From the IMG/VR virus record IMGVR_UViG_3300037245_003526, positions 24,297 through 88,296 of that record: a stretch of DNA of 64,000 bases; one strand, written 5' to 3'. Source of the DNA: a virus. Every line of letters begins with the position of its first letter. Position 1 is the first letter of the stretch. Made by a program: the position numbers and the translations under genes. Positions 1 to 29,053 of the stretch are shown piece after piece. Below the pieces are notes generated by a model that was given only the letters and a program-made list of their open reading frames with translations, ran no database searches and was not told the origin of the DNA.

Positions 1-28
1 ATTAGTACTTGAACTATTAGTAATAAAA

Positions 29-406
29 TCACTCTTTATTTTCATCTTTACTACCTTTCCAATTTGAAATTTCATCTATTTTACGTTTGGTTACTCCAGC
101 TACTACACCAGAATCTGAACCTCCATCTAAATCAGTTAATACAAAATTATTCTCTCTACAAATATGTGCTAACTGTCTATTTAATCCAAAATCCTCACAT
201 TCACATATGTGATCACCATTCTTAACTAATTCAATTCCTTCACGAACTTTTTTAAGAATTTCATCATCATCTTCTTCATCAAAATTATCATATGGCATAT
301 CTAATTCATCAAAAGACTTTAATTGGAAATCTTCTGGAATGAAAACCACATATGAGGTTGAACTACTATTAGTTATAAAATCCCCTTTAAGTTTCAAAAC
401 TTCCAC
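29..406 (-). CDS. Member 1 of the MKxKGDF(V/I)TNSSSTS N-terminal-motif paralog family (small acidic protein).
   Basis: The ORF-track start at 406 is GTG. A TTG at 395-397 preceded by AAGGAGGTG gives MKLKGDFITNSSSTSYVV, which matches the other five family members. The C-terminus is a divergent acidic region. Confidence 0.6.
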   Translation of the reverse strand: MEVLKLKGDFITNSSSTSYVVFIPEDFQLKSFDELDMPYDNFDEEDDDEILKKVREGIELVKNGDHICECEDFGLNRQLAHICRENNFVLTDLDGGSDSGVVAGVTKRKIDEISNWKGSKDENKE

Positions 407-938
407 CTCCTTTTAAATTTCCCTTACTATCTTTTTTATTTTTTATATCCTCAAGTATATCTCCGAGAACACTATAGTACATCTTTTTGAATATCGATGA
501 AATACTATTAGCTAACCCTTTGAAGAATCTGACTATAAAATCAGTTGCTATTGACCAGAATAAACATATAGGCCAATATGCCATCCAAAAAGCTACCTTT
601 GAAAACATATCATGAAATTGAGGTACAGCATGTTCATATCCATCTCTAAGATATCTTCTCTTGATATCTTTAAGCTTAAGGTAAAACTTTATTATTGAAA
701 AAACTACAGCACCTACAAAGTATATTGATAATCCAATACCAATTGCCTTAGGATTATCCCTTATATAAGGGATAATAGTTGCATCACCAAAACCAACAAG
801 AAGTAAAGCGAATATTATAAGTGCAGCAGTTGATGGATATCCCCTTTCTTCATATACAAAATATCCAAGAAACAAAATCTCAACAGCAACCAATGACCAA
901 AACCAAAATCCTCCAAATATAAAAAATGCATACAACAT
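387..938 (-). CDS. Polytopic membrane protein, function unknown.
   Basis: 183 aa with about five hydrophobic helices. Its 3' end overlaps the start of the family member downstream of it. Confidence 0.45.
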   Translation of the reverse strand: MLYAFFIFGGFWFWSLVAVEILFLGYFVYEERGYPSTAALIIFALLLVGFGDATIIPYIRDNPKAIGIGLSIYFVGAVVFSIIKFYLKLKDIKRRYLRDGYEHAVPQFHDMFSKVAFWMAYWPICLFWSIATDFIVRFFKGLANSISSIFKKMYYSVLGDILEDIKNKKDSKGNLKGGGSFET

Positions 939-941
939 ATC

Positions 942-1961
942 TTACCATCCTTTCTTATCATAGGGACATACAAATCTATCCTTATTTAAAATTTCTCTAA
1001 AGTTTTTAAAAGACTCTCCTTCATCCCATGCCAATTTTATCATAGCTTTATTTGTAGGTACTATGTTTTTTCCATATTGATCTCTGCATCCAAAAGAGCA
1101 AGGCATTAATCTCATATCTGGTGTAACATAGCAACTCATCCTCGCAGCTTCACAACTATCAACATATAATTCTTCACTTTCTGTAAGTTCTCTTACATTA
1201 GCAACTTTATTTACGAGACAACTATCCAACCCAATTTTAAACTTACTTTTGGGTTGTTCAATTAGTCTAGCAAAAGTTTCAAATTGCAAATCGGTTGGAT
1301 GCCAGTCTAAATTCTTTCCCCTACCTTGGGGTTTAAACAGAAGAAATATCACTGCATTCAATCGTTCTACGTCAACTAGACCATCCCATACGTCATTATC
1401 CTCAATGATACTTATCACATCAGAGAATGTATATTTAGAAAATAACTGATGGATATTAGTCTTAACTCCAGCATCCATTAGACGGTTTAATGCTGAATAT
1501 GTGAAGTCTTTTTTGTACATACTTACTGCGACTGCTCCACAATATTTCTTTGATATTTCTATCTGTTCATCTGTAAGACCATTACCGCTAGTAGTATAAT
1601 TTGGAACAACTCCATTTTCTCTAGCGTATCTAAGGATTTGCTCAAAGTATTCATGATGATTAGGATCACCCCTTCCACCAAGAGCTACTTGCATGACATG
1701 ATCCTTTGATGCATGAATAAGTCTTTTAAAATCCAACAGTGACATATTGGGTTCAGAGTCATCTCCCTGATAACAAAACTCACATTTATTTTTACAATGT
1801 CCCATAATGCCTACATCTATCATACTTGGATACTCTAATGAAAATGGATCAGGTTTTCCATCTTTTCCTGAAAGTAATTCCTGGCCGGTTTTAGTGTTAA
1901 ATAGAATAACATAATCTTCATTCTCAACTTTCTTATCATAAGCAAATACAATTTTCTTCAT
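942..1961 (-). CDS. Radical SAM enzyme with a C-terminal Cys-rich, SPASM/twitch-like region.
   Basis: It has a CxxxCxxC cluster (GHCKNKCEFCYQ) and a Gly-rich GGRGDP motif. The C-terminal region carries additional Cys (DSCLVN, DSCEAARMSC, PCSFGC, FVCPY). Confidence 0.7.
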   Translation of the reverse strand: MKKIVFAYDKKVENEDYVILFNTKTGQELLSGKDGKPDPFSLEYPSMIDVGIMGHCKNKCEFCYQGDDSEPNMSLLDFKRLIHASKDHVMQVALGGRGDPNHHEYFEQILRYARENGVVPNYTTSGNGLTDEQIEISKKYCGAVAVSMYKKDFTYSALNRLMDAGVKTNIHQLFSKYTFSDVISIIEDNDVWDGLVDVERLNAVIFLLFKPQGRGKNLDWHPTDLQFETFARLIEQPKSKFKIGLDSCLVNKVANVRELTESEELYVDSCEAARMSCYVTPDMRLMPCSFGCRDQYGKNIVPTNKAMIKLAWDEGESFKNFREILNKDRFVCPYDKKGW

Positions 1962-1976
1962 AAATTATTCCTTTTC

Positions 1977-2744
1977 TTATAAGTATTCTATTGTTATAGA
2001 TTCACAAAATGGTCTTATATAATAATCAAAGTATCTCTCTTTATCAACATCTTCTGTAGTCAAAAGTTTAATCATTGTTTCTGAAATTTCAATATCTCCA
2101 TAAGCTTTTAAGAATATATTGAATTTACCTTTTGCCCCAGGAATACAAAATAACTTAACATTTTCACTATTCAAAATTTCATCCTTAATTTTCTGCATTG
2201 CTTCAAATACTACTACATTCGGTTTACCCTTAACTCCAAAAGCTAACTTCTTTAACATTTTATCCATTTCTGAATATCTATTAGGCACCCCCTTTATTAT
2301 TACATTATTATAATGAGTTGAAATATATCTTTGTCTATCAGATGAGATAACCATTAGATCATAATTCGCTTGCATATCAATAGAAATAAAGTTATCAGTA
2401 GTTTCCTTTAGAGTTCTTTTAACAATAATTCCATCATAAGCTCTTAAAATTAAATCATCTTCTGAAACATTATTTCTTAAAATATATTCCGAAATAGTAG
2501 AATTAGTGATATTCCTCAAAGCTGGGATAAGATTAGGATGCTCTCTCATTAAAAGACCAATTTGAGTATTTCTTTTTAGTTTATCATCTTTGTCAATATT
2601 AGAAAGATCAAATCCAAGATTTTTTAAAAGTCTGTAGTGACAGGAAGAAATATCATATAAGTAAACATCTTTTTGGACTAATTTGCATGTTGGATTTATG
2701 TCCATAATCCTTTTCCCCATTGATGGGTGAGTAATAGTGCTCAC
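1977..2744 (-). CDS. Hypothetical protein.
   Basis: Long ORF in an operon context. No recognisable motif. Confidence 0.4.
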   Translation of the reverse strand: MSTITHPSMGKRIMDINPTCKLVQKDVYLYDISSCHYRLLKNLGFDLSNIDKDDKLKRNTQIGLLMREHPNLIPALRNITNSTISEYILRNNVSEDDLILRAYDGIIVKRTLKETTDNFISIDMQANYDLMVISSDRQRYISTHYNNVIIKGVPNRYSEMDKMLKKLAFGVKGKPNVVVFEAMQKIKDEILNSENVKLFCIPGAKGKFNIFLKAYGDIEISETMIKLLTTEDVDKERYFDYYIRPFCESITIEYL

Positions 2745-2761
2745 CCATCAATATTAACTAT

Positions 2762-3526
2762 CTACCCATAGGTAGTTAGATGCATGAGAGCATTTTCAAT
2801 TTTCATCAAATGTCCAATATCTATTACACCTTCTCTTTTTTCCATGAACCATTTTATAGCTTCATCTTTAGTTGTGATAGATTCAATGGACTTTCTTATT
2901 TGTGCAAACTGAAGTATTAAAAGCTCAGGATCAATTGGTGCTGCTAAATTTGAAAGTATACCTGTTGTATCAGCACTAATTAATTTAACTCCCTTTTCTC
3001 TTTTCTTCATTTTAGTTCTTGCATACGGAATTAAACTTCCTTCAATATTTATACAGAAATATACAATCAAACCTGATTTCACCCCGTAACATTTCAGAAA
3101 TTTTGCATCACTCATATCATTAGTAATTATAAAACAATTGGTATATATTTCCATTGTAGTACCAGGTAAATCAAGAACAGGAAATTGATTTGCATTTTCA
3201 AATACTTTAATATTTCTTTTATCAAAACCTCGCTTATCTTTTCCCCCTTTCGGATCAGAAATAGTGAATATTAAAGTCTCGTCTGGATCAACTCCTTTAA
3301 CATTTAATCTGACATAATTTACATTATCAAAATTTTCGTTATTAGATTTAAACCATTCAGACAATGATGTAATTCCTATCTCTACAGATTCTTCTTGTAC
3401 AGGATCTGGTATAGATTCTGAAGTATCTTCTTGTCTTATTATTCCACCTGGAAGAGCTTCTTCAGAATTTTCATATGATTCAGGTGTCACATCTCCATCC
3501 TGAATCACTTGAGATAAATTATCCAT
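2762..3526 (-). CDS. Hypothetical protein with an acidic N-terminus.
   Basis: 254-aa ORF. No recognisable motif. Confidence 0.4.
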   Translation of the reverse strand: MDNLSQVIQDGDVTPESYENSEEALPGGIIRQEDTSESIPDPVQEESVEIGITSLSEWFKSNNENFDNVNYVRLNVKGVDPDETLIFTISDPKGGKDKRGFDKRNIKVFENANQFPVLDLPGTTMEIYTNCFIITNDMSDAKFLKCYGVKSGLIVYFCINIEGSLIPYARTKMKKREKGVKLISADTTGILSNLAAPIDPELLILQFAQIRKSIESITTKDEAIKWFMEKREGVIDIGHLMKIENALMHLTTYG

Positions 3527-3683
3527 TTAAAAACCTCCTTAATAAACTTGTTTAGCAGGGCAGCACGAAAATCTATTCTTACCTTGATTTATATATACTA
3601 CCCTATATTCATAACCATCCAACATGAAAATTTTTCCCTCCTTAGGTAAAGGTACTTTTTTATCTTCTTTTTTTTCTTCCTTT

Positions 3684-4070
3684 TCAACTTTCACTTCCGG
3701 TGTTTCCATTAATCTCCCTCCGATTCCATTTTTGTTTTACTTCTAAATCTTCTCTCCACTTTGCAGGATCTATATCAGTAAACGCTTCTATAGCTGCTCC
3801 AGATAATGCAAATATTTTTATTAAATATTCATAAGTCTCAACAGGTGAAGTTTTACCAGAACAAGATTCTTTATTGTAATTTAACCATGGAGGAAGTTCT
3901 CCAGAATCCCATTTTTCAACATAACTTTTCTTAGCTTTATCTAATGTAACTTCGATAAATTGTAAAAAACTTGCAATATTTAAATTTTTATCAAATTGAT
4001 AATCTCCAAATACTTTTTGTTGATATTCTCTTTCCTTTAAATATAAATCAAATAAAGTTCCTCTATCCAT
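3684..4070 (-). CDS. Hypothetical protein.
   Basis: 128-aa ORF. Confidence 0.35.
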   Translation of the reverse strand: MDRGTLFDLYLKEREYQQKVFGDYQFDKNLNIASFLQFIEVTLDKAKKSYVEKWDSGELPPWLNYNKESCSGKTSPVETYEYLIKIFALSGAAIEAFTDIDPAKWREDLEVKQKWNRREINGNTGSES

Positions 4071-4084
4071 TTTTAATCTCCTTT

Positions 4085-4336
4085 CTACATTTTAAGAACC
4101 AAACCTACATATCTATTATCAAGGTTTGTAATTGCTTTATTAACTTCTCCGACATTTTGAAAATCAATATAAATACTTTTATCATTATCTAAAGGAACAG
4201 TATAAACTTTATAGAATATAATTCTATTTCTAATTTGTTTATAATGAGATATGTTATTCATATTGATCCTTTGATCACCAACCCTGATAAAATCCTTTTC
4301 TTTATCAGGGTTTTCTTTTTGTACAAAGTTTTCCAT
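4085..4336 (-). CDS. Hypothetical small protein.
   Basis: 83-aa ORF. Confidence 0.3.
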   Translation of the reverse strand: MENFVQKENPDKEKDFIRVGDQRINMNNISHYKQIRNRIIFYKVYTVPLDNDKSIYIDFQNVGEVNKAITNLDNRYVGLVLKM

Positions 4337-4344
4337 AGATTCAC

Positions 4345-5478
4345 CTATTCATTATAAACATAATCCTTTGCCATGATTTCTGATTTATACTTCTCTCTCT
4401 TACGAATTGATACTCCAACTTCTCCTGGACCGGGTTGAAATAATACGAGTCTGTCCCATTTAATCTTCTTACCTTTTTGGACATAATCACTTTCCCATGT
4501 ACAATTTTTCAACCATGTTGGAATCCTCCCTGTATCATGTTTCATAAAAGCAAGCTCGGTAACTCTTGTTGCAAACCTTAGATTAGGAACAATTGTATAA
4601 TTCCATAATCTTCTTTCTTTTGTAAGTCTGACAAGATTCTCTTGACTACTCTCAACTTTAGGATAGGAATCATTATAGTCAGGAACGTCTATATGTACTT
4701 CAAGAGATTTAAACTTTACAGATTTACCATCTGCTTTCATTGATTTACCCCGATCTTTAGGTTTTCCTTCTTCCTCAGTTTCAGGATATTCAATTCCTTC
4801 AGAAATCATTCTTTTCATCTGAGCGAAATTATCTTTCGCTTGTTCAGTCAATCTCTCAATAAGAACCTTTGTTATAAAATAATGATGACCATAAAATGTT
4901 TGCCATCTTGCAGGATGAACAAAATCTTTGAAAACCAGTCTGTTTCCTGTAAATAGTTCATTTTCATTAAGGAAACTATTTTCGCTTCTGGTTGGATCCC
5001 ATTGAATTGTTTTCCACCCTTCGTACCAGTTACCATCTGGAGCAGTTACAGAGAATGATCTTGGTACTCCCCTCACTCCATCTTCTATAACATTATCATC
5101 ATTAATCCTCAGGCCAAATGAAAATACTTCCTTGTTAGAAACAAGACTTAAAATTGGACCATTCCTATTTCCTTCAGATACAACTTTAATACCTTCAGTT
5201 ATAGTTTTTGGTCTCATGCTCTTATAAAAAGGAATATTTACATGAGCATGTCTATAGGCAAGAGTGGATAAGAAACATGCTAAATCCAAATCAGTACCAA
5301 CAAACACTCCATCTCTAAGAGCAGGTGCAGGTTTTCTTTTATAAAGATCATAAACCCACCAGTTAGAAACTTCACTTATAATCAGATCCGGATGGATTCC
5401 CCGGTCTAAAACTTTTTGCATAACACCATGATCAAGTACATTTTTGTGCGTTTTTGCTACAGATTTTTTTTCAGTCAT
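4345..5478 (-). CDS. Hypothetical protein downstream of the RNAP beta/beta-prime pair. It may be RNAP-associated.
   Basis: 377-aa ORF in the same operon direction as RNAP set 1. No motif. Confidence 0.4.
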   Translation of the reverse strand: MTEKKSVAKTHKNVLDHGVMQKVLDRGIHPDLIISEVSNWWVYDLYKRKPAPALRDGVFVGTDLDLACFLSTLAYRHAHVNIPFYKSMRPKTITEGIKVVSEGNRNGPILSLVSNKEVFSFGLRINDDNVIEDGVRGVPRSFSVTAPDGNWYEGWKTIQWDPTRSENSFLNENELFTGNRLVFKDFVHPARWQTFYGHHYFITKVLIERLTEQAKDNFAQMKRMISEGIEYPETEEEGKPKDRGKSMKADGKSVKFKSLEVHIDVPDYNDSYPKVESSQENLVRLTKERRLWNYTIVPNLRFATRVTELAFMKHDTGRIPTWLKNCTWESDYVQKGKKIKWDRLVLFQPGPGEVGVSIRKREKYKSEIMAKDYVYNE

Positions 5479-5496
5479 TTTTCATTTCCCTTTCAT

Positions 5497-6351
5497 TTAA
5501 AAATAGTTATTAGAATTAAAACCACCATTTATACCCTTATACATCATTGCTACAGCTTCACTTGTGTGAATACTTTCTTCATGTACACATTTGACAATCC
5601 AGTCAGTTACTTTATCATTACTATTTAAACCTTGCGCTATTGCTCTAATAGCGTCCTCAACAAACATCGGATTTTTCCATGCATGTTTAGCAATTGTCAT
5701 TTCATCTTCTCTTTTGATAATAGGATATGGAAGAACCTTAACTGCTTTTTCTACTATATCAACAATATCCTCCAACCATAATGGACCTTTTAGATGATGA
5801 GGATGTCCCTCTACAAGAACATTAGCAAATGATCTTTGTGCATGAGGTGCAGCTCCACGACCTTTTCGAGCAAGGTACATTACTAACTCTTTACTACATG
5901 GACAATATGACGCATATTGAACTCTAACTCCTTGAAAGAATTTAAATTCATCTTCATCCAAAAGTTGTCCTTCAAACTTACAATCATAAAATAATGGAAA
6001 CTCATTATCAGATTTTATTGACTGTTTTATAATTGGTAACTTAAAGTCAAATCTCATATAAACATGATCAGTTTCTAAATTATCCCTAAGATCTTTTAAA
6101 ATATTAAGGATTAATGATTGCTTCAATGGTTCATCAAGATACCCACGTAAAGTTCGTATGCATCTTGACATTGAAATACCCTTTATGTTAGATTCTAAAC
6201 TTGCCCTCATAGAAACATTGGCAACCATATTTCTATAGTTGCCGTTTCTAGATTGTAACATAAACGGAACTTCAACATTTTCAACTCCAACCTGTTGAAT
6301 TGGAATTTTTACTTCAGGTTCGCTTTGTTGAATATCCGGTAAATCGCTCAT
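5497..6351 (-). CDS. Hypothetical protein.
   Basis: 284-aa ORF immediately downstream of RNAP beta. Confidence 0.4.
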   Translation of the reverse strand: MSDLPDIQQSEPEVKIPIQQVGVENVEVPFMLQSRNGNYRNMVANVSMRASLESNIKGISMSRCIRTLRGYLDEPLKQSLILNILKDLRDNLETDHVYMRFDFKLPIIKQSIKSDNEFPLFYDCKFEGQLLDEDEFKFFQGVRVQYASYCPCSKELVMYLARKGRGAAPHAQRSFANVLVEGHPHHLKGPLWLEDIVDIVEKAVKVLPYPIIKREDEMTIAKHAWKNPMFVEDAIRAIAQGLNSNDKVTDWIVKCVHEESIHTSEAVAMMYKGINGGFNSNNYF

Positions 6352-6492
6352 ATCACCTCCTTATTTTTTTTCTCTTAAAAAGACTTTTAATTTCATTTCT
6401 AAAATGTTTAGAAATAATTGAAAGTGTAATTAAAAGAATACCAATAAATCCTACTTCATTCTTCATTAATTCAATAAATTCCATTTTATATC

Positions 6493-9400
6493 CTACCTTT
6501 CTACACCTATGGCTTTTAAATAAGCATTTAATAATCTTACAGACTCTGGAATTATAGATTGTTCTTTATCATCTTTCATAAAATCAGAATCTATCTTTGT
6601 CCTTATAAACTCATTTTTCAAATCAATACAATCACTCTTAGTAGTTAGAAACTCAAACAAATTTGCAGAAGCATCATGACCTGTTAAACACGCCATTTCC
6701 ATTTCTCCGCTTCTTTGACCTCCACCATGTTTTCTTCCTGCTAAAGGTTGTAATGTTTTTCTTGCATATGATCCTATTCCTCTAGCTGATAATCTTGTTT
6801 CAGAAATATGAACCATTTTGAAAAAGTACATATAACCTACAGCTATTCTATTCTTAATAATTTCTTTTGCTATAGGTTCGTACACTTCTCTTTTGAATTC
6901 AGTATTTGTATATTCAAGTGCTTTTCTGGTAACATCTAAGTCTACTGATTCAAATGGTGGTTGAATTAAAACAATACTATCAATAAACTTCTCAGTAATT
7001 TCTCCTGGAAGCTGTTGATTAAATTGTTCATAATACCATCCACCATCGGTTCTGTCAATAATTTTGATATAATTAAGTAAGTATAATTTTAACATTTTTT
7101 GTATTTGAGCATCATCTAATCCTTCAACTCTTTTAATTTTTCTATCAAGAATTAATTTCATATATTTTCTTAAATCAGAAAGTGACATAGCTAAATGTAA
7201 TTCATAAAGCTGTCCAATATTCATTCTGCTGATGATACCCAGAGGGTTTATACATATATCAACATGACGACCATCAGGTAATTGTGGCATTTTTTCATGA
7301 GGAACAATTGTTGAAATTACTCCCTTATTTCCATGTCTGTTTCCAACTTTATCACCAACCTGAATAGGTCTGAAAAATATTGCGAATAACTCTACGAAAA
7401 TTCCATTAATTTTTTCATTCTTAATTTTGAATTTTCCTATGTTTGCATGTGTGTCTAATTCATTATCTTTGATAAACTTTATTGCTTCTTTTTTAGGAAG
7501 GTGTTCTGATATTACCCTTCGTAAATCAGTCTCTTTCTCTTGCTGATCTGTAATTTTTTTCTCTACCCATTCTTTATATTCAGGAACATCTTCATTCCAT
7601 TCATTAGCAAATATATTACACTCTGTGATATACAAATTTTTTCTTGCATATAAATTCTTTTCCTGTTTGAAAATATCAAGAAACTCTTGCTGATTAGAAG
7701 GTATAGTTTTTATAATGGCATATGTATCATCCTTTTTAATTCTATCCTCTCTAGTAGGTAGTGGTTTAAAAACATTTTTATCCAAACTTAATAAGAGTTT
7801 ATGAGGTGGAATTGTAAATGACAAATCCATATAATGTACTGATGTAAGTACATTATCATCTCTTAGTCTTTCAGATATTACTATACCATCCTCATAGTTA
7901 TAACCGTACCACTCCATTACAGCAGTAAGTAAATTTTTTCCAATATTAATCTTATTGTCAGTACAATAATTACTCTCTGCTATTATCTGACCTTTACTTA
8001 CTTTGTCACCAAATTTGACATAAATTTTTAAGACATCAAGATTTGAAATATATATCTTTCTATAAGATATATTAAAAATATCTACTTCTTCATTATCATA
8101 AGCAAGAATTAGATATTTTTCATCTAAATAAACTACTTCACCATCCTCCTTTGCAACTTTAACAAACTGTGTTTTATCAGTATATAATCCTTCGCAACCA
8201 GATTGAATCATTGGTACATCAAAATTTTGTAACATGATTGCTTGTCTCATTTGTGATGATGCCATTTGAAGTCTGGTTTGATCATCGTGCTCTAAAAAAG
8301 GAACCATTGAAACTGGAATTGAAATTGGTTGCTTTTCAAGATATTCATTTGTAAAACGTAAATTTTCATCTAACGGAACATTTGGAATTAAGTTTTGTAA
8401 CACTCCACAATTTTCCCTATCAGGAGTATCCACCGGACAAATTCTACCAAACATTGTATCATTAATATCTCGTAAATGCTCAGGTACATTTTGTTTATTA
8501 AAACCTCCAGGACCAACTAAACTCGTTCTACTTAACTTTGTGAGTTCTTCTATTGGATTTATGGAAAAGTCAAATTGAATTATATCTGAAACATTACATT
8601 CTGAAAGAATTTGTGTAGAATTTACATTAAACTTTGGTTGTCTGGCAGTTCTATTAGTAATACAGAAATCGAAGATTATTTTACTTACCTTTGATAATAT
8701 CATATATTCAAAACAACGTATTCTCTTGTTCTGCATGTCTGTATCATCAAAACCTCCAGATTCCATTGTATAGATTAATTCATCAAGAACAGAATCAGTA
8801 TGAAAAAACCTTGAAGTCATAACATCACACTTCATAATAAGGTCTAATGCAAAAACTAAATCTTCACCCTTACCTTTGGCATTATATTTTGAATAATGTC
8901 TTCCTAACTCTTTAATAATATCATCTTGTGAAGTTCTCTTATTTTCATCATAAAAATCTAAAATATCTTTTAAGAAAGCACCATACATTCCATCATTACT
9001 AAAACTATCAGAATTCAAAGAAGATAGTTTAAATTTATTATTCATTTCCTCTACACCAAAATAAGCAAACATTACTAAATGTAAAGGAACCTTTCTTCCT
9101 AAAATACTAATATAAGTATATGGTGAATCTTTTCTATCTTCAAAAACCATTATTTGAGTAACGTTGGTTCTAAGTTTTATACTCTTTCCTCTTGTAACAA
9201 CTGGAATATCAAAAAACTGAAACTGAGGAATTTTTTTCCTGCCATTTATAATTATATAATTATTATCAATAAGTTTTGGAATTTGTATTGATAAATTTAT
9301 TAAAGACGTCCCTTTCTGAAGTCTAATTGATAATGTTTTTTTCAATGTTCTGCTTATATCACCTGTAGAAAATCTTGGTTCCTTAAATTCACATTCCACA

Positions 9401-9552
9401 ACTTCAAAACCAATATCAGCCACAGGTGCTATAATCACTTTAATATCTTCTAATAAAGAACTATATTCATTAGCTCTTATATCAAAAATATTCTTCTCTG
9501 CAAGTTTATAAACTGGATTAGCTATATTCAAAAGTACTCCTCCTTTCAACAA
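6493..9552 (-). CDS. Multisubunit RNA polymerase beta-subunit homolog (set 1).
   Basis: It carries GDKVGNRHGNKGVIS (the beta C-terminal catalytic-region signature) and MASSQMRQA (an NMQRQA-like motif). 1019 aa. Confidence 0.8.
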   Translation of the reverse strand: MLKGGVLLNIANPVYKLAEKNIFDIRANEYSSLLEDIKVIIAPVADIGFEVVECEFKEPRFSTGDISRTLKKTLSIRLQKGTSLINLSIQIPKLIDNNYIIINGRKKIPQFQFFDIPVVTRGKSIKLRTNVTQIMVFEDRKDSPYTYISILGRKVPLHLVMFAYFGVEEMNNKFKLSSLNSDSFSNDGMYGAFLKDILDFYDENKRTSQDDIIKELGRHYSKYNAKGKGEDLVFALDLIMKCDVMTSRFFHTDSVLDELIYTMESGGFDDTDMQNKRIRCFEYMILSKVSKIIFDFCITNRTARQPKFNVNSTQILSECNVSDIIQFDFSINPIEELTKLSRTSLVGPGGFNKQNVPEHLRDINDTMFGRICPVDTPDRENCGVLQNLIPNVPLDENLRFTNEYLEKQPISIPVSMVPFLEHDDQTRLQMASSQMRQAIMLQNFDVPMIQSGCEGLYTDKTQFVKVAKEDGEVVYLDEKYLILAYDNEEVDIFNISYRKIYISNLDVLKIYVKFGDKVSKGQIIAESNYCTDNKINIGKNLLTAVMEWYGYNYEDGIVISERLRDDNVLTSVHYMDLSFTIPPHKLLLSLDKNVFKPLPTREDRIKKDDTYAIIKTIPSNQQEFLDIFKQEKNLYARKNLYITECNIFANEWNEDVPEYKEWVEKKITDQQEKETDLRRVISEHLPKKEAIKFIKDNELDTHANIGKFKIKNEKINGIFVELFAIFFRPIQVGDKVGNRHGNKGVISTIVPHEKMPQLPDGRHVDICINPLGIISRMNIGQLYELHLAMSLSDLRKYMKLILDRKIKRVEGLDDAQIQKMLKLYLLNYIKIIDRTDGGWYYEQFNQQLPGEITEKFIDSIVLIQPPFESVDLDVTRKALEYTNTEFKREVYEPIAKEIIKNRIAVGYMYFFKMVHISETRLSARGIGSYARKTLQPLAGRKHGGGQRSGEMEMACLTGHDASANLFEFLTTKSDCIDLKNEFIRTKIDSDFMKDDKEQSIIPESVRLLNAYLKAIGVER

Positions 9553-9942: not shown

Positions 9943-12672
9943 CTAAACTCGCTCACCACATAATATTTTATCCATAATCCCTTTATAAAGTCCTGGTTGT
10001 AATATCCCTTTAATAATATGTTTTTTAGGATTTGAGAAAGCAAGACCCATAAGCCAGCTTTCATATGAGGGGACGGTTTGAACGGAATGAAACTGAGGAA
10101 CCAGTTTTTCACGATTTTTAAGAAGACGCCATTTATAAATTCCTACCCACATTAATTGAGAAACTATACACTCAAAGTGAACATGGTTAATAGTACGAGA
10201 AGTATTATAAGTTGTATAAAGATCATCAACTAATTTTGGTATGTCAACATTTTTACCAAACTTATGTAGTAATTTAGATGCCATTGATAAATCACTAACA
10301 ATATCCTGTTGTTTCAACTCATCTACTTCTTCACCTTCTCTTATATTTGCAACTCCACTAGTATGAAATGTTCTTAAAACTAATTGAGTATTACATTCAC
10401 CCATTGATTGAGCAGCAATAATTCCAACAAACTTTGTTTTAAGATCCTCATGTAATTTTCCATAACAAGTATGACATAATTTTTCATTTTTACAATATAT
10501 GGGACTTCTAACATTTATTGTTTTTCCAATAAAGTCCATATAATTATCTTTTGTAATAAGTACTAACTCATCATCTTCAGACATCCATTTATTTATAAGT
10601 TGTTTAGCTTTCTTATCATCACGTATAAATACTTTTAATAAATCCGTTGTACCACAATCTTCAATATCATAACTCAGTAATAAATTTGCTGCTGTAAAAA
10701 TCAATTTTCTTGATAAATAACCAGAAGCTCCAGTATTAAGAGCAACATCAAGAAGACCTTTTCTACTACCATAAGTGGAATTAAAGAAACCTTTTGGGGT
10801 CAAACCACTTATAAAACTATTTTTAATTGGTTCAGGAATTATTTGACCATTAAAATTTGATACAAAACCCCTTGATAAAACTATCTGTTTAGCTTGATCC
10901 CAACTACCTCTAGCTCCAGATTCAATCATATATGAGTATTTAAATCCACTTCTTAAAATATCCATAAGGTCTTTATTCTCAGTTGAGATTTTGAAAACTT
11001 GTTCTCTTATGGACCCAGACGAGTAAATATCATCTCTGACAGTATCAATACCTTCGATATGACAATCATCGAGAGATAGAGTTGGACCGAATAGGGTTGA
11101 GTATTTGAATCCTACGAACTTGATTTTGTCCAACACCTCTGCTGTAGTAGCTAAATTATACTTTCGATTAATATCATTTAATATTCTAATCAATCCTTTT
11201 GAATTAGTAGGTTCAATAATAAGTGGATAATCTTCTGGAAAACATTCATTGAATATTTTAATATCCTCTTGAATAGTTTCCCCTTTATATTCAACTTTTC
11301 TACTTAGTTTTGGAAATTTATTATTAGTAAGTGCATATATACCAAGAACCATATCCTGACTAGGTGTTGTAGTTAAACTGCCATTAGATGGGTTCTTTAA
11401 ATTCTGAGTAATTAACATTTTTTCAATTGCTTCTTGTTTAGTTTCTTCGCTAATAGGAACATATATGGCCATCTGATCTCCATCAAAATCAGCATTAAAT
11501 GGTGGGCAAGATAATGGATGAATTCTAATAACATTATCTAAAGATATTTTAATATAGTATGCTAACATACTAAGTTTATGGAGAGATGGTTGTCTGTTTA
11601 ATATACAAACTTCTCCACTACATATTTCTTCACATAAGGAAAATAAAACTGATGAGTTTGAAGCTATACACTCATCAATAAAATCAATAGATTGATTTAG
11701 CAATTTAAACTGTCCTGTATCTATTAGTTTCTTTGCTACTTCAATCTTAAAGATTTCTAAAAATATAATATAAGGAATTGAACATTGATCAATGTTTAAT
11801 GTTGGATCTGGTACTATGACTGCTCTACCAGAAAAATCTATTCTTTTACCAAGTATGTTTCCCCTGATAAGACCTTCTTTTTTAGAAAGTTTTTCAAGAA
11901 TATAAGCATATAATTCATTTACATCTTTTTGAAGTTGTCTGAAATGATTATAGAATAAGGTATTATCTCTTCTGACATCAATCAGCGATTCTTCAATAAC
12001 TTCTTTCTTTGTAAGAACCTGCATGTAATACTTATTAATCTTATCTGCATATTGTTCACTTCTTAAGGATCCTTTAGTAGCAGGTCTTAAATCAGCAGGT
12101 AATACAATAATACGATCTATTATTAATTCATCAATATTATCATATACAATCTGCCATGGTGAATCTTCCTCCTCGTCAATTGCTTTCTCTGCTAACTTAA
12201 ATACAAGCTCATGTATAGCTTCTAACCCATACCATGCTTCTCGTCCTTCTTCAATTTCATCTGAATTAGTAACTATTAGATCATTATTATCCTCATGTTC
12301 ATCATCCAAAACAAGGACAGATTTTTCATCTCTCATTAGCTTTTTTAAAGCTTCTTTTAATGAGGTACCAGCAAGATCAACTACCAAATCATAAAATACT
12401 GGATTGACCACAGGCACCGGAAGAACTATTTTTGCAAACCTTCTTCTTCGTTCATCACTATTAACAACATCAACACTACATATATTACATGTACCTCCAG
12501 AACCAGATGTTCCATAATATGTACCGCATTGACATGTGTAGTTTTTTAGTGGACCAAATATTTGTTCGCTAAATAGTCCTTCCGGATGAAATTTTTTCTT
12601 ATCCATTACCTTAGTTGTAGTTATTTCAGGAAGGTTTTCTGTAAATTCTGTAAACTTTAGTAGACTCGGCAT
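9943..12672 (-). CDS. Multisubunit RNA polymerase beta-prime-subunit homolog (set 1).
   Basis: It has an N-terminal zinc finger (CQCGTYYG...CNICS), the catalytic NADFDGD, and a trigger-loop region IIAAQSMGECNTQLVLRTFHTSG. 909 aa, ending soon after the trigger loop. Confidence 0.85.
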   Translation of the reverse strand: MPSLLKFTEFTENLPEITTTKVMDKKKFHPEGLFSEQIFGPLKNYTCQCGTYYGTSGSGGTCNICSVDVVNSDERRRRFAKIVLPVPVVNPVFYDLVVDLAGTSLKEALKKLMRDEKSVLVLDDEHEDNNDLIVTNSDEIEEGREAWYGLEAIHELVFKLAEKAIDEEEDSPWQIVYDNIDELIIDRIIVLPADLRPATKGSLRSEQYADKINKYYMQVLTKKEVIEESLIDVRRDNTLFYNHFRQLQKDVNELYAYILEKLSKKEGLIRGNILGKRIDFSGRAVIVPDPTLNIDQCSIPYIIFLEIFKIEVAKKLIDTGQFKLLNQSIDFIDECIASNSSVLFSLCEEICSGEVCILNRQPSLHKLSMLAYYIKISLDNVIRIHPLSCPPFNADFDGDQMAIYVPISEETKQEAIEKMLITQNLKNPSNGSLTTTPSQDMVLGIYALTNNKFPKLSRKVEYKGETIQEDIKIFNECFPEDYPLIIEPTNSKGLIRILNDINRKYNLATTAEVLDKIKFVGFKYSTLFGPTLSLDDCHIEGIDTVRDDIYSSGSIREQVFKISTENKDLMDILRSGFKYSYMIESGARGSWDQAKQIVLSRGFVSNFNGQIIPEPIKNSFISGLTPKGFFNSTYGSRKGLLDVALNTGASGYLSRKLIFTAANLLLSYDIEDCGTTDLLKVFIRDDKKAKQLINKWMSEDDELVLITKDNYMDFIGKTINVRSPIYCKNEKLCHTCYGKLHEDLKTKFVGIIAAQSMGECNTQLVLRTFHTSGVANIREGEEVDELKQQDIVSDLSMASKLLHKFGKNVDIPKLVDDLYTTYNTSRTINHVHFECIVSQLMWVGIYKWRLLKNREKLVPQFHSVQTVPSYESWLMGLAFSNPKKHIIKGILQPGLYKGIMDKILCGERV

Positions 12673-12984: not shown

Positions 12985-13442
12985 TAAAAATAATTAATTG
13001 GAAGTCTTCCTGCTTCTCCTTCATATCTGATATATTTTTCATCAAAATCCGGCCAAAAATGTGGCGAGTTTAAATTCCAAATCCTTAACATAAACCTTAT
13101 TGCCCATAATTGCTGTTTTAATAATTTCTCTTTCCCACTAATTACCATTCCTTTTAAATCATCTGAAATACAAAAATCCGCCTTTTTACAAAAATATTTA
13201 AAGCTTCCGCTAACTACTTTTCCTTTTGGAATATATGAGTTTGGATGTGCAACATCATATAATGTTATTCCTTCAAATTCATTATCAAATTTATTATTCA
13301 CAAGAATATCATATTTACTTATAATATAATTTTGATGAACCCACTTAATATCATATGTATTTTTTTTCCCTGTATGAAAATCATCAAATCTAATAAGTGC
13401 AGGTTTAATTGTTTCTCTCATTGTTTGTAATATTTCACTCAT
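12984..13442 (-). CDS. Hypothetical protein. It is a weak E2/UBC-like candidate.
   Basis: The ATG at 13440-13442 overlaps the TAA of the upstream E1-like gene as TAATG, a classic coupled-translation arrangement. The track's longer start at 13478 is probably wrong. It has a mid-protein HPN motif followed by a Cys (AHPNSYIPKGKVVSGSFKYFC) at roughly the position seen in UBC folds. Confidence 0.3.
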   Translation of the reverse strand: MSEILQTMRETIKPALIRFDDFHTGKKNTYDIKWVHQNYIISKYDILVNNKFDNEFEGITLYDVAHPNSYIPKGKVVSGSFKYFCKKADFCISDDLKGMVISGKEKLLKQQLWAIRFMLRIWNLNSPHFWPDFDEKYIRYEGEAGRLPINYF

Positions 13443-14329
13443 TATGCACCTCCTGTCTCTGGAATTAATTCTATACATATTCTTTCTTCATTTATTCCTA
13501 TTGTGACTAAATATTCTCTATAAGTAAATACATTATTAGCCATTTCTGATAGAATTCTCATAACATCTTCTGGTGATTGTAATTCATGCTTAGAAATAAT
13601 ATATGAACATAAAGAATCTTCTTTTCTACCAACATAAATAGGTATAGAAGAATCTTTATTTGCTTTTAATATCGCAGGTAAATTTTCAAAATGTCCTGTT
13701 AATTTTTCTTGCCCCTCAAAAGAAATATCATAAATTAAATCCGGTTGATTTTTATATTTTTTAACAGCTATCTGAAATTTATCATCATCATCATCACCCT
13801 TCAAATCTATACTATATTTAATTTCTCTTTCAATAAGTTCCTTAATTTTTCCTGTTCTAACATGTTCATATAACTTAAATGCTGCTCTTCTTATTTCATC
13901 CTTTGAAAAATCACTAGTATAAGTACCCCGTTTTGAAGTACCATATGTTACATATTTATTACAATCAATAACTAACTTATTGAATGAAATATAAAATCTA
14001 ATATCAATATAACCACTCCTATCACAGCTTTCATCTCTACAATCAAAAACCATATCATATGGAATTCTTTTACATGTAGGTTCATCAAATTTTTTATATA
14101 TAGGGTTTACCAATAAATCATCAGTCCTATCTTTTATCATATCACAAAGCGCATATACTTTTTTACGTTTTAAATCTCTAACTCTATAAATAGAGTTTTC
14201 TAAATTTGATTTTTCTACAAAATCATTATCAATAAATGAAAGTTTTTGTAATCCCGGTAAATGAGACATAAACTCAGCGAAGAATCCACCTAACGAACCA
14301 ACACCTATTATTAATACACTTTTAGTCAT
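13442..14329 (-). CDS. ThiF/MoeB/E1-like adenylation-domain protein (E1-like A). Its nucleotide-binding motif is degenerate.
   Basis: VLIIGVGSLGG (GxGxxG), then IDNDFVEKSNLENS where canonical E1s have SNLNRQ, then DMVFDCRDESCDR (DxxDN-like). A GGGAGTG ribosome-binding site precedes it. Confidence 0.6.
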   Translation of the reverse strand: MTKSVLIIGVGSLGGFFAEFMSHLPGLQKLSFIDNDFVEKSNLENSIYRVRDLKRKKVYALCDMIKDRTDDLLVNPIYKKFDEPTCKRIPYDMVFDCRDESCDRSGYIDIRFYISFNKLVIDCNKYVTYGTSKRGTYTSDFSKDEIRRAAFKLYEHVRTGKIKELIEREIKYSIDLKGDDDDDKFQIAVKKYKNQPDLIYDISFEGQEKLTGHFENLPAILKANKDSSIPIYVGRKEDSLCSYIISKHELQSPEDVMRILSEMANNVFTYREYLVTIGINEERICIELIPETGGA

Positions 14330-15495: not shown

Positions 15496-16176
15496 TTAAA
15501 TTACTACTCGTTGTGCGGGTCTTACATTCATCATTTCCATATCAAAGTAAACTTCTGAATTCTTACCCGACCGTACATTACCTACTCCAACTAAGTCATA
15601 AAAATACCAGCACATTATAAGAGCCACAGTTATATTAGCAAATAACACTTGTGGCTCAGATACTGATAGTTCTTCACAACTCATTTGATCCGGAGATCTA
15701 TCTTCCGGGTTGTCTATCTCGGGATGATAGTCAGTAAGAGATGGTGTTATTTTTTTACCATTCTCTCGTATATAAATTTGCACATTTCCGTCAACAAATT
15801 CATTTCCTCCTGAGATTAAAACAACTTTTTCTAATGTAGTACAATAATCAGAAACAATTTTTCTAGTCCTATGATTATCTACACATAAAAATATGACATC
15901 ATCCTCTTCTATAATTCTATTGACATTCCTTGAGGTAACATAGTCTGTACATGTTAAAACTTCTAAATTATCAAATATTGCAATAAGATCTCTTCTCTTA
16001 ATTCTTGCCTTATTACCAAAGTTTGAAAAGGATTGTCTTTCTTTATTCCTTTCCTTGTAACTCTTTCCATCGATCAAAGTAATATTAAATTCACCATCAA
16101 TATAATTAACAAATCTGAAAAGGTTATCGCATAATGCAGAACCAACTCCTCCTAAACCTATAACTTTGATGTTCAT
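15496..16176 (-). CDS. ThiF/MoeB/E1-like adenylating enzyme (E1-like B).
   Basis: VIGLGGVGS (GxGxxG), then LIDGKSYKERNKERQ (a D..E.N..RQ ATP-binding motif), then DDVIFLCVDNHRTRK (DxxDN..R), then VVLISGGNE. Confidence 0.7.
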   Translation of the reverse strand: MNIKVIGLGGVGSALCDNLFRFVNYIDGEFNITLIDGKSYKERNKERQSFSNFGNKARIKRRDLIAIFDNLEVLTCTDYVTSRNVNRIIEEDDVIFLCVDNHRTRKIVSDYCTTLEKVVLISGGNEFVDGNVQIYIRENGKKITPSLTDYHPEIDNPEDRSPDQMSCEELSVSEPQVLFANITVALIMCWYFYDLVGVGNVRSGKNSEVYFDMEMMNVRPAQRVVI

Positions 16177-16191
16177 ATTTACTCCTTTCTA

Positions 16192-17214
16192 CTAAAATAT
16201 ACTAGATTCATCAGGTTCATCAGGTTCTTCTTTAAAACCTAATTTCTCTAATTGGTCTTCATCAAGTTCCTCAAAAATTTCCTGCATAAGAAGCTCTGTT
16301 TTATGCGCTTTATAAGGACACTGTTCACATGGATTCCATTCCTCATTTTTAATTCTGTAACCAGAATCATTTACACTTTCAGGTTTCAGTCTGAATGGAT
16401 TAAAATCATGTACTTTAAGTTTAGTTTCCTCAGGCAAGACTTTTTTAGCTTCTTCTTCATACTTGATTTTATCAACCATCTTTAACCATTTTTTTGGAAA
16501 TTTAATATTTCCGTCTATCACCCCCTTTACTTTATACCCAAGAGATGTCTTAGATGGTCTAACATCCTCTACTTGTTCATATTTTCCCTCCATAAGCGAC
16601 CATTTTTTATAAACTTCTCCAGGAATTTCAAACTCTTCAAGTTTGATTCCATCAATATAATTAGTTGGATCGCAAGTAAATCTTGTTCCATTTGCAACAA
16701 TAGAACAAGAGATTGATATTAAATCATTATTCATATTACCAACTGTAATATGAAGTCCATCAAAATCAACTTCATCTGTATCATCTGTTCCAGAATGAAA
16801 TGCTGACATTCCTGCGTGACTATGTATAGTACCTATCCTTTGATATCCTTTAATCTGTTCATTAAGATAAGCTACAGATCCACTACTAGTTTTCTGTAGA
16901 GGAACCTGAACTTTAAATTTACCAGATTTTTTATTAAAATGTATTACAGTGTTTGCCTCATTACTATTATAATCCTGATATACTTTCTTGAAAAAAGTAA
17001 TAATCTTTCCAAAATCTTCAGCTGAAATTCGTTTGATATTCATTTTTGCTTGAGGTATTATATCATCAGAAAGAAATGAAATCTTATTAATAGGTACTAT
17101 ACTTTCCATGAAACCTACTTTTTTCTTTAAGTAAACTTTATCCTTACAAATAATATATAAAACATCATCTGAAGGCATCTCATTTACACCATCATTTATA
17201 TGTACTTTAAACAT
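16192..17214 (-). CDS. JAB/JAMM (MPN+) family metalloprotease with a C-terminal extension.
   Basis: IHSHAGMSAFHSGTDD matches HxHx7Sx2D, with an upstream Glu. 340 aa, GGGAGGTG ribosome-binding site. Confidence 0.7.
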   Translation of the reverse strand: MFKVHINDGVNEMPSDDVLYIICKDKVYLKKKVGFMESIVPINKISFLSDDIIPQAKMNIKRISAEDFGKIITFFKKVYQDYNSNEANTVIHFNKKSGKFKVQVPLQKTSSGSVAYLNEQIKGYQRIGTIHSHAGMSAFHSGTDDTDEVDFDGLHITVGNMNNDLISISCSIVANGTRFTCDPTNYIDGIKLEEFEIPGEVYKKWSLMEGKYEQVEDVRPSKTSLGYKVKGVIDGNIKFPKKWLKMVDKIKYEEEAKKVLPEETKLKVHDFNPFRLKPESVNDSGYRIKNEEWNPCEQCPYKAHKTELLMQEIFEELDEDQLEKLGFKEEPDEPDESSIF

Positions 17215-27721: not shown

Positions 27722-27937
27722 CTATCCTTCGTAAGTAATTCTTTTTTCTTTATTCCAAAGTTCGTTAGGATAACACATGTTTATCATCCTTTCCGCTTCT
27801 TCAAAAGTATCATAAGAGTACGGTTCAGATTTCTTTCCAGATGGTTTAACTTTATGCCACCCCCTCTCACCATCATTATTGATACTGAAAACTTCCATAT
27901 AAAATTTAATGACCAATACCTCCTTAGTATCCTTCAC
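27722..27937 (-). CDS. Hypothetical small protein.
   Basis: 71-aa ORF. Confidence 0.3.
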   Translation of the reverse strand: MKDTKEVLVIKFYMEVFSINNDGERGWHKVKPSGKKSEPYSYDTFEEAERMINMCYPNELWNKEKRITYEG

Positions 27938-28241
27938 AGTCCACTATTTGTATTCCTTCTGTTTCCTCCAAAAATTCCATCAATACTTCATCCTGTACAC
28001 AAAGATAATGAACCTCTTTACCTTTAGCTTTCATTTCAATTGCTTTTCTATGAAATTTATCAGATAAGAACCAACCTTCTTCCACTGCACCCTTCTCTAT
28101 TTGTTCATCAGTTAACTTTATAATCCTATAAAGTTTAGAAGCATTGAAGTTAGAAATTATATCACCCCCTTCTTTTCTTGAATCTGAAAGTAAAAATGTA
28201 ACAGAGCTACTATTGGTTACAAAATCTCCTCTTAATTTCAT
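27924..28241 (-). CDS. Member of the MKxKGDFVTNSSS family, with the variant motif SSSVTF.
   Basis: It starts MKLRGDFVTNSSSVTFLL. Confidence 0.6.
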   Translation of the reverse strand: MKLRGDFVTNSSSVTFLLSDSRKEGGDIISNFNASKLYRIIKLTDEQIEKGAVEEGWFLSDKFHRKAIEMKAKGKEVHYLCVQDEVLMEFLEETEGIQIVDCEGY

Positions 28242-28249
28242 AACACCAC

Positions 28250-29053
28250 CTATTCACATTTCTTCTGTTTTAAACCACTCCATCCATCAGATACACCAAG
28301 AGGAAATATCCTATCATTTACTGAGACACATAAATTACCATCCCTACATAAAATATTAGTTTCAGCTTTAATATTAGTTTCACATTCCATTGGTACTATA
28401 TCACCCCAATCATCAATGGCACCAATAGCAACTTCAGCTCCATTATAAAGTATATAAGCTTTCTTTTCCCTGCATATTATATCAATCATAGATGAGGAAG
28501 CTGATTTCTGTGCAATAGTATCCAACTTTTTTGCAAGAATATTTATACCCTTTTTGACTTGAGCAATACGTCTCTCAGTAGCATATTCTTTTACAGTTTT
28601 TTTAGCTGTATCAACAACAATCTCTTTTGCTGCATTTTTAGCTACTTTTTCTGAATATGCTTTGAAGTTTGGTATAGCTATAGCAGCCAATATAGCTATA
28701 ATAGAAATTACTATCATCAGCTCTATTAAAGTAAATCCACCTCCCCAACTACCACCTCCCTCACTTGGAGGACTTTCCAACTCACATATCTGTTTTTCAA
28801 ATTTTTCGATGTCTTTCTCACACTTTTTAATCTTTATGGTTACTCTAACTTCTTGTTCCATAGCATCCATTGTAGCTTTAACTTCATTTAATTTTTTAAC
28901 TTTATCTTTTAACTTCTTAACTTTATCCTCAACAGTCTCGGATATAAATTCACCTTGGGTAATTAAATTGACAATTCTTTTACCAACAAATTTCCATAAA
29001 CCCCAAGCAACAAATCCAATGAAAATTAACCCTATTATTCCCTGAGCAAACAT
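28250..29053 (-). CDS. Membrane-anchored coiled-coil protein with an internal type IV prepilin-like motif and a Cys-containing C-terminal domain.
   Basis: N-terminal TM helix, then a K/E-rich coiled coil, then GGGSWGGGFTLIELMIVISIIAILAAIAIPNF. That last stretch is a canonical class III signal with G|FTLIE, about 105 aa in from the start. The C-terminus has multiple Cys, as in pilin D-regions. Confidence 0.5.
   Translation of the reverse strand: MFAQGIIGLIFIGFVAWGLWKFVGKRIVNLITQGEFISETVEDKVKKLKDKVKKLNEVKATMDAMEQEVRVTIKIKKCEKDIEKFEKQICELESPPSEGGGSWGGGFTLIELMIVISIIAILAAIAIPNFKAYSEKVAKNAAKEIVVDTAKKTVKEYATERRIAQVKKGINILAKKLDTIAQKSASSSMIDIICREKKAYILYNGAEVAIGAIDDWGDIVPMECETNIKAETNILCRDGNLCVSVNDRIFPLGVSDGWSGLKQKKCE

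Follow-up and report, generated by a model that had tools for sequence, protein, structure and literature searches.

Radical S-adenosylmethionine (SAM) enzymes that mature leader-bearing substrates by means of a SPASM or twitch domain are already known as a general kind. SuiB, CteB and SkfB (structures 5v1s, 5why and 6efn) combine a radical SAM core with a C-terminal auxiliary-cluster domain, and their genes adjoin genes whose products have a conserved N-terminal recognition sequence. The anSME/AtsB and QhpD enzymes, also of the SPASM class, alter a short motif in a full-length protein, either by converting Ser/Cys to formylglycine or by forming thioether crosslinks. The SPASM domain has a seven-Cys motif, CX9-15GX4C-gap-CX2CX5CX3C-gap-C, and two auxiliary clusters, and the twitch domain is a truncated SPASM with one auxiliary cluster (PMC6231123). 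Here we analyze 64,000 nucleotides of viral DNA (IMG/VR record IMGVR_UViG_3300037245_003526, positions 24,297 to 88,296), which we refer to as the window. Our subject is a radical SAM enzyme encoded in it, which we term rSAM1, together with a family of proteins that have in common a short N-terminal tag, and a second radical SAM enzyme, rSAM2 (Table 1). On balance, we favor reading rSAM1 as a protein maturase of the twitch type among radical SAM enzymes, working with the tagged proteins, and often with rSAM2, in a phage-specific modification system directed by the tag. What is new about it is that it is set in phages, that a universal tag stands at residue 1 of hypervariable, folded proteins, that the family is so large and that there are two enzymes.

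The assignment of rSAM1 to the radical SAM superfamily, made in an earlier note on this DNA for a protein of 339 amino acids (aa) with a CxxxCxxC motif, is borne out by sequence and by a structural model. The motif is CX3CX2C in the form CKNKCEFC (residues 56-63); in an alignment of 24 homologs with 52-67% identity, C56, C60, C63, C248, C270, C288 and C332 never vary, and position 277 mostly has a Cys. The Pfam Radical_SAM model (PF04055) gives rSAM1 27.4 bits (E 4.5e-6), slightly short of the gathering score of 29.5, and most of the listed homologs carry a precomputed match to it. These homologs come from a collection of 5.8 billion proteins that holds 3901 of them; among the best 120 of the 3901, one is 97% identical to rSAM1 and the others 52-67%, many are encoded on contigs of 100-300 kb, and 9 have a precomputed match to SPASM (PF13186). 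In a search of the PDB by sequence, rSAM1 alone had no match, and a profile of the 24 sequences retrieved only SkfB (E 0.017). Matches to NCBIfam models all lie far below their cut-offs, those of full length being weak ones to the SPASM families NirJ2 and MftC; the PHROG match, phrog_7293 (E 7e-30), is annotated as of unknown function. The AlphaFold2 model has a mean predicted local distance difference test score (pLDDT) of 89.3 and a predicted template modeling score (pTM) of 0.89. In it, three β-strands (residues 10-13, 17-21 and 28-32) precede the barrel, and two further strands (276-279 and 284-286) lie between C270 and C288. A Foldseek search with this model against the PDB gave 130 matches at E ≤ 0.001, of which the best 50 are all radical SAM enzymes. 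SuiB ranks first (E 5e-13, template modeling score 0.65), followed by CteB, SkfB, DesII, viperin, BlsE, PqqE, TigE, BtrN, anSME and EpeE.

The conserved Cys residues of the C-terminal region place rSAM1 closer to the twitch than to the SPASM architecture. The segment C270-x12-M-x4-C288 (with G at the M position in the homologs P0010 and P0019) fits the CX9-15GX4C hairpin, whereas the CX2CX5CX3C block, and with it the full seven-Cys set of SPASM, is missing. Hence, the C-terminal domain fits a twitch-like, truncated SPASM with a single predicted auxiliary cluster. The SPASM-like, Cys-rich C-terminus proposed in the earlier note accordingly survives in its conserved auxiliary Cys residues but not as a full SPASM domain, as only four to five Cys are conserved; the search suggested there, with the SPASM model TIGR04085, gave no match at E ≤ 0.1, nor did PF13186. 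Despite the similar layout, rSAM1 is only 12-17% identical to SuiB, CteB and SkfB, and its partners are folded, phage-encoded proteins of 60-234 aa with up to 11 paralogs rather than short peptides. It also differs from anSME, which has the seven-Cys SPASM with two auxiliary clusters and acts on a C/S-x-P/A-x-R motif. Identity with anSME was rejected, with this motif lacking in the tag and TIGR03942 absent from the matches of rSAM1, as is TIGR03906. Other specific assignments were likewise discarded. No QueE model matches at E ≤ 0.1 (NCBIfam) and no QueE structure occurs in the best 50 fold matches, in agreement with the earlier view that the enzyme is not QueE. The viperin model NF038283 matches residues 52-148 alone and, with 21.3 bits, stays far under its cut-off of 180; the PADLOC pVip model reaches 29 bits on the generic N-terminal half of the core only, and for MoaA no model comes near its cut-off.

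These results bear on the proposal that rSAM1 acts on a small molecule or nucleotide and that the tagged family is unrelated to it. The enzyme could in that case be viperin-like or QueE-like, belong with FolE2 and QueD to a 7-deazapurine or pterin pathway, or be a sugar dehydrogenase resembling BtrN or DesII. A FolE2 gene lies about 3.5 kb upstream of rSAM1 and a QueD-like gene is present in the window, the two being the first steps of the 7-deazaguanine or pterin pathway; FolE2 is near the enzyme also in four related loci (L001, L002, L007 and L011). The weak pVip and viperin matches, and DesII, BlsE, viperin and BtrN among the fold matches, point in the same direction. However, FolE2 is found near the enzyme in one clade of close relatives only, being absent from the other contexts compared, among them the loci with a baseplate/sheath module and that of Klebsiella phage Miro; the open reading frames (ORFs) directly upstream of rSAM1 (1977-2744 and 2762-3526) are kept only in this same clade. 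Neither QueE nor QueC was found within the 64-kb window. Further, the top fold matches are peptide maturases, viperin and QueE are without conserved C-terminal auxiliary-cluster Cys, and the family-model matches fail as set out above. Given this restriction of FolE2 to one clade and the lack of any match to a cofactor-pathway model, a small-molecule substrate is the weakest of the alternatives, and we regard it as highly improbable.

The putative partners of rSAM1 are recognizable by their N-termini. Searches with the first member against all window ORFs (BLAST and phmmer) recovered five more members, and a fragment at the window edge is the seventh. The window members have only the N-terminus in common, MK[ILY][KR]GDF[VI]TNSSS[TV][ST][FY]. 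Across 187 tagged ORFs from the related loci and the window (158 unique sequences) the tag reads M1-K2-x-K4-x-D6-F7-[VI]8-T9-N10-S11-S12-S13-x-x-[FY]16, with N10, S11 and S12 invariant in 100% of the unique sequences. The start codon stands exactly five codons before the conserved Asp in 187/187 ORFs (ATG 141, TTG 24, GTG 22); therefore the first member begins at TTG 397, and not at GTG 406 as the earlier note had it. Both Ser codon families, AGY and TCN, are represented at Ser11-13 and all four Thr codons at Thr9, which indicates that selection acts on the peptide and not on the DNA; a nucleotide-level element was accordingly rejected as an explanation of the tag. A search with a profile of the first 35 residues (E ≤ 0.001) found at least 3361 cluster representatives (50% identity) with the tag region among 1.84 billion, and in most of the best 150 of the 3361 the match begins at residue 1.

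Beyond the tag these proteins are highly diverse and diverge fast. They are 60-234 aa long (median 137 aa), and past residue 20 they form 21 unrelated BLAST clusters. The largest of these, which we call the core type, has 160-170 aa, matches phrog_7397 (unknown function) and ends in a conserved ...DE.G....LEH......SHH-COOH. Apart from this PHROG match of the core subfamily, searches of the tagged proteins against Pfam, NCBIfam and PADLOC gave nothing meaningful, and no curated family in these databases covers them. The AlphaFold model of the first member (pLDDT 83.3, pTM 0.76; 81 aligned sequences) consists of a small, confidently predicted α/β domain, whose first strand spans residues 13-18, preceded by a low-confidence tail that is the most conserved part (residues 1-10, mean pLDDT 45); this fold has no significant match in the PDB. 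The first 10 residues of the tag are thus predicted to form an unstructured tail, and strict conservation of such a tail would be expected if a partner binds this peptide and possibly modifies it.

The continuation of S11-F16 into the first β-strand also suggests a special case of such maturation, in which the tagged proteins are small enzymes and the radical SAM enzyme turns an active-site Ser into a protein-derived cofactor, formylglycine-like or similar, in the way of anSME/AtsB with sulfatases. Protein-derived cofactors are among the known products of SPASM/twitch enzymes (PMC6231123), anSME is among the structural matches of rSAM1, and the acidic and His-containing ending of the core type resembles a metal or active site. 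We nevertheless hold this to be unlikely: the sulfatase motif and the TIGR03942 match are both lacking, no known enzyme fold was found for the modeled member, and the C-terminal domains of the different subfamilies have no detectable mutual similarity.

At the locus itself, the three genes rSAM1, a gene for a 183-aa hydrophobic protein and the first tagged gene follow one another on one strand, with 3 nucleotides (nt) between the first two, an overlap of 11 nt between the second and third, and no terminator-like site between any of them. On a contig with an identical enzyme (L094) the order is rSAM1, the hydrophobic protein and then three tagged members of 122, 147 and 119 aa in tandem. The earlier description of a membrane-protein gene as the only one separating the enzyme from the family member agrees with this gene order. 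Several long segments of the 183-aa protein are hydrophobic, as its translation shows directly, and we read it as a multi-pass membrane protein. It has no family match above cut-off in Pfam, NCBIfam, PHROG or PADLOC, and tblastn found no relative of it in the other loci (L001-L094). It was for this reason rejected as a third component of the system, and appears to be a lineage-specific insertion in this phage. In relatives, members of the subfamily of the first tagged gene ('IPxDF') directly follow rSAM1.

The linkage of rSAM1 to the tag is conserved in both directions. In a sample of 86 loci (contigs with rSAM1 homologs and 80 viral loci), 64 have between 1 and 11 tagged ORFs. Of these ORFs 178 lie on the same strand as the enzyme gene and two, both short and spurious, on the opposite one; four are upstream of the enzyme and the others downstream. 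The first downstream tagged ORF begins at most 500 nt from the enzyme stop codon in 53 loci and at most 50 nt from it in 27. The linkage is kept in gene contexts of different appearance, an RNA polymerase/FolE2 module (the window, L001 and L002) versus a baseplate/sheath module (L004), and it is retained down to an enzyme identity of 40% (L092). In the reverse direction, a degenerate DNA pattern for ATG-K-x-K-x-D-F-V-T-N-S-S-S was searched over the viral collection, and this tag-only pattern brought up at least 116 new stretches; an rSAM1 homolog is present in 52 of the 116 listed.

The enzyme family is essentially viral. A search of 185,579 species-representative genomes with rSAM1 returned only five loci, all of them on contigs of metagenome-assembled genomes and two of them with tagged genes. 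Among cultured phages, the nearest version of the enzyme has 29% identity across 92-96% of the length and occurs in 171 of 50,697 phage records. These are T4-like phages of the genera Slopekvirus and Pseudotevenvirus, including KP15, Miro, Lw1, phT4A, RB16, RB43 and Raoultella phage Rpl1 (gene 228). A tagged protein of the core type (MKIRSGFVSNSSSSSFIV...SHH) is found in 175 of the same 50,697 records, in the same genera. The counts of tagged protein and enzyme are equal for Enterobacter, Cronobacter, Citrobacter, Escherichia, Raoultella, Pseudotevenvirus and Buttiauxella, and stand at 115 against 108 for Klebsiella. The cultured phages carry just one tagged gene, which lies 18-20 kb away from that of the enzyme. 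This unlinked co-occurrence in T4-like phages, along with the 40%-identical L092 enzyme, is the most independent confirmation of the linkage. The enzyme of these phages, annotated as 'radical SAM superfamily protein', is the only cultured-phage relative of rSAM1, and differs from it in its length of about 384 aa and in the absence of an accompanying rSAM2. In Klebsiella phage Miro (gp164; L087, 5941-7095) it has C-x7-C-x2-C (TTKCNGPAGKLCGFCY) in place of CX3CX2C, and keeps the CX2CX5C part of the second SPASM cluster (CRNCPAYAVC) that is lost in the subfamily of the window. We found no proposed substrate for the Slopekvirus/Pseudotevenvirus enzyme in the literature searched, and searches of the literature with the motif strings and for phage radical SAM or RiPP (ribosomally made, post-translationally modified peptide) systems returned nothing describing the enzyme-tag pair.

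A second radical SAM enzyme, rSAM2, is tied to the tagged family as consistently as rSAM1. It has no sequence relation to rSAM1 and gives weak full-length matches to the models of the maturases PapB and QhpD. In the window its gene comes directly after two tagged members. Homologs with 45-49% identity occur in 15 of the listed stretches found with the tag, beyond the 52 with rSAM1, and in each of the 15 the rSAM2 start is either overlapped by a tagged gene or preceded, at about 10 nt, by the end of one, the same layout as in the window. Some contigs have both enzymes (for example those of L029 with L103 and of L047 with L171); in cultured phages rSAM2 had no match. The best-supported reading is that rSAM2 acts on the same tag as rSAM1.

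That two different radical SAM enzymes are linked to one tag is also what might be seen if the tag were a docking peptide and the tagged proteins exchangeable adaptors, comparable to F-box proteins, that steer rSAM1 and rSAM2 to other targets, which might be host proteins, nucleic acids or metabolites. Such adaptors would combine an invariant tag with highly diverse C-terminal domains, as observed, and the predicted flexible tail would suit a segment that becomes ordered upon binding, perhaps by pairing with the conserved N-terminal β-element of rSAM1. To our knowledge, however, exchangeable adaptor subunits of radical SAM enzymes are without precedent; many phages, including all the cultured ones, have only one member, and the absolute invariance of N-S-S resembles a chemical more than a docking requirement. 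We therefore give little credence to a role of the tag in docking alone.

Short conserved N-termini on otherwise hypervariable phage proteins have an analogy in phage T4, whose internal proteins are hypervariable small proteins united only by a common capsid-targeting sequence, that of IP/Alt. This raises the prospect that the tag serves another process, as a virion packaging or injection signal or as a translation-initiation or stability element, with the radical SAM genes as mere neighbors. The dominance of AAA at Lys codons 2 and 4 would suit this proposal, AAA-rich early codons being common translation enhancers, as would the 18-20 kb between the two genes in cultured phages. Yet the T4 motif is a different one and has no associated radical SAM enzyme, no protease site of the T4 type (L/I-x-E) follows the tag in the sequences as read here, and the synonymous variation described above excludes a nucleotide-level element past the first codons. 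Such a role, which we deem decidedly improbable, would also leave it unexplained that in dozens of loci genes of two unrelated radical SAM families each stand within 0-50 nt of a tagged gene, and that the unlinked genes co-occur in matching genera.

From gene neighborhood and co-occurrence we infer that the tagged proteins are substrates of rSAM1. The earlier idea of a maturase tied to the neighboring family by a recognition sequence thus gains support from the two-way linkage, the invariant tag and the maturase-like fold, and the models of QueE, MoaA and viperin all stay far from their cut-offs. In the mechanism that we propose, the exposed N-terminal tail of each family protein would serve as a common recognition and modification sequence, and rSAM1 would bind it, maybe via its own conserved three-stranded N-terminal β-element in place of a RiPP recognition element. 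Cleavage of SAM at the CX3CX2C cluster would generate a 5'-deoxyadenosyl radical that takes a hydrogen from a residue within F7-S13, and the single auxiliary cluster would handle the electron, with a covalent modification as the outcome. Candidate chemistries are oxidation of Ser to a formylglycine-like aldehyde as by anSME/AtsB, which the Ser-rich invariant motif renders plausible by analogy, a C-C or C-O crosslink as made by SuiB-type cyclases, and epimerization. The variable C-terminal domains would then be functional payloads, either effectors or small enzymes, all matured via the one tag. More tentatively, it is possible that this constitutes a hitherto undescribed, phage-wide maturation system. 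In it, one or two dedicated radical SAM enzymes would equip the tag of thousands of small, otherwise unrelated proteins with a new modification, perhaps an aldehyde derived from Ser or an intramolecular crosslink, and would thereby arm rapidly diversifying effectors, for example in host takeover or anti-defense.

Several observations weigh against the maturation reading. Unlike SuiB, CteB and SkfB, rSAM1 shows no PqqD-like RiPP recognition element: Pfam and NCBIfam give no match to one, and the N-terminal region of the model consists of only three strands, with helices absent. Folded proteins as putative substrates, with no obvious division into leader and core and no obvious protease, make the RiPP analogy loose. 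The entry of S11-F16 into β-strand 1, along with the acidic and His-containing C-terminus of the core type, suggests that the Ser motif could be part of the active site of the members themselves and not a substrate. A few database proteins (P0246, P0247 and P0249) carry the tag twice, at residue 1 and again internally, and look like fusions of two members; hence, a free N-terminus may not be required. In the remaining 22 of the 86 loci a hidden Markov model of the tag detected no tagged gene in the stretch, though at least one of these 22 contigs has tagged members elsewhere on it (L076 versus L145). Finally, single-linkage clustering by flanking ORFs put 89 of 92 loci into one group and is thus uninformative on independent contexts. 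The loci derive from large myovirus-like phages that form a broad but interconnected set, so that the independent observations of linkage are far fewer than the loci.

Table 1. Features of the window, with positions counted from its first nucleotide.
Feature	Positions	Strand	Remarks
Tagged member, window-edge fragment	1-45	minus	MKIKSDFITNSSSTN...; 147 aa on L094, there followed by a third member of 119 aa
Tagged member, first	29-397	minus	122 aa; TTG start at 397; MKLKGDFITNSSSTSYVVFIPEDF...; 'IPxDF' subfamily
Hydrophobic protein	387-938	minus	183 aa; between rSAM1 and the first tagged gene
rSAM1, radical SAM enzyme	942-1961	minus	ATG start; 339 aa; N-terminal three-stranded β-element (10-32), partial TIM-barrel core, C-terminal twitch-like Cys set
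FolE2-type GTP cyclohydrolase I	5497-6351	minus	Pfam E 2e-66
RNA polymerase β-like	6493-9552	minus	Rpb2 domains
RNA polymerase β'-like	9943-12672	minus	Rpb1 domains
Two ThiF/E1-like adenylyltransferase homologs and a PRTRC-system protein-A-like gene	13442-14329, 15496-16176, 16192-17214	minus	clustered
rSAM2, second radical SAM enzyme	20947-21978	minus	343 aa; CNLKCEYC at residue 13; C253, C283 and CEGCNWTC in the C-terminal part
Tagged member	21992-22690	minus	232 aa; MKYKGDFVTNSSSTSF...; directly upstream of rSAM2
Tagged member	22700-23035	minus	111 aa; MKIRGDFVTNSSSTSY...
SbcC-like nuclease	23050-25242	minus	
SbcD-like nuclease	26079-27086	minus	
Tagged member	27087-27497	minus	136 aa; MKIKGDFITNSSSTSYVVYIPDDF...; same subfamily as 29-397
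Tagged member	27924-28241	minus	105 aa; MKLRGDFVTNSSSVTF...
Protein with prepilin-type motif	28250-29053	minus	267 aa; motif at residues 106-127
Tagged member	30534-31238	minus	234 aa; MKIKGDFVTNSSSTSF...; paralog of 21992-22690
QueD/PTPS-like protein	32968-33444	minus	80.8 bits, just below the TIGR03367 cut-off of 89.25

The window has about 30% G+C and long ORFs that run end to end, nearly all on the minus strand. Its genes include pieces of a multisubunit RNA polymerase, ribonucleotide reductase, a topoisomerase, RecA and SbcCD, a content that matches the profile of a large phage. A 244,552-bp contig of the Joint Genome Institute (JGI) encodes a protein 100% identical to one from the window, and megablast of positions 1-8000 against the cultured-phage collection found no match. 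Genes for β-like and β'-like RNA polymerase subunits are a typical possession of large phages that encode an RNA polymerase; Rpb1 domains occur on two ORFs of the window. The clustered ThiF/E1-like and PRTRC protein-A-like genes may represent a phage ubiquitin-like activation module. Tagged genes also occur dispersed between genes of DNA metabolism at 20-28 kb from rSAM1, one of them abutting the start of the SbcD-like gene. The protein with an internal prepilin-type N-terminal cleavage/methylation motif is encoded between tagged genes. In a 247-kb relative (L002, 4236-6133), a row of small ORFs with matches to the DnaJ-type CxxCxGxG zinc finger lies upstream of the enzyme.

The proposal can be tested directly, since T4-like phages in culture (RB16, RB43, Lw1, phT4A, KP15 and Miro, with the hosts E. 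coli, Klebsiella and Enterobacter) possess distant but complete enzyme-tag pairs. If it is true, large phages would own a radical SAM machinery for protein modification that is guided by one universal N-terminal tag on a huge and fast-evolving protein family, and new modification chemistry could emerge from it. The reach of SPASM/twitch maturases, so far made up of short peptides of bacteria and few cellular enzymes, would come to include folded viral protein families, and with the tag as a handle a large class of phage genes called 'hypothetical' could be catalogued.

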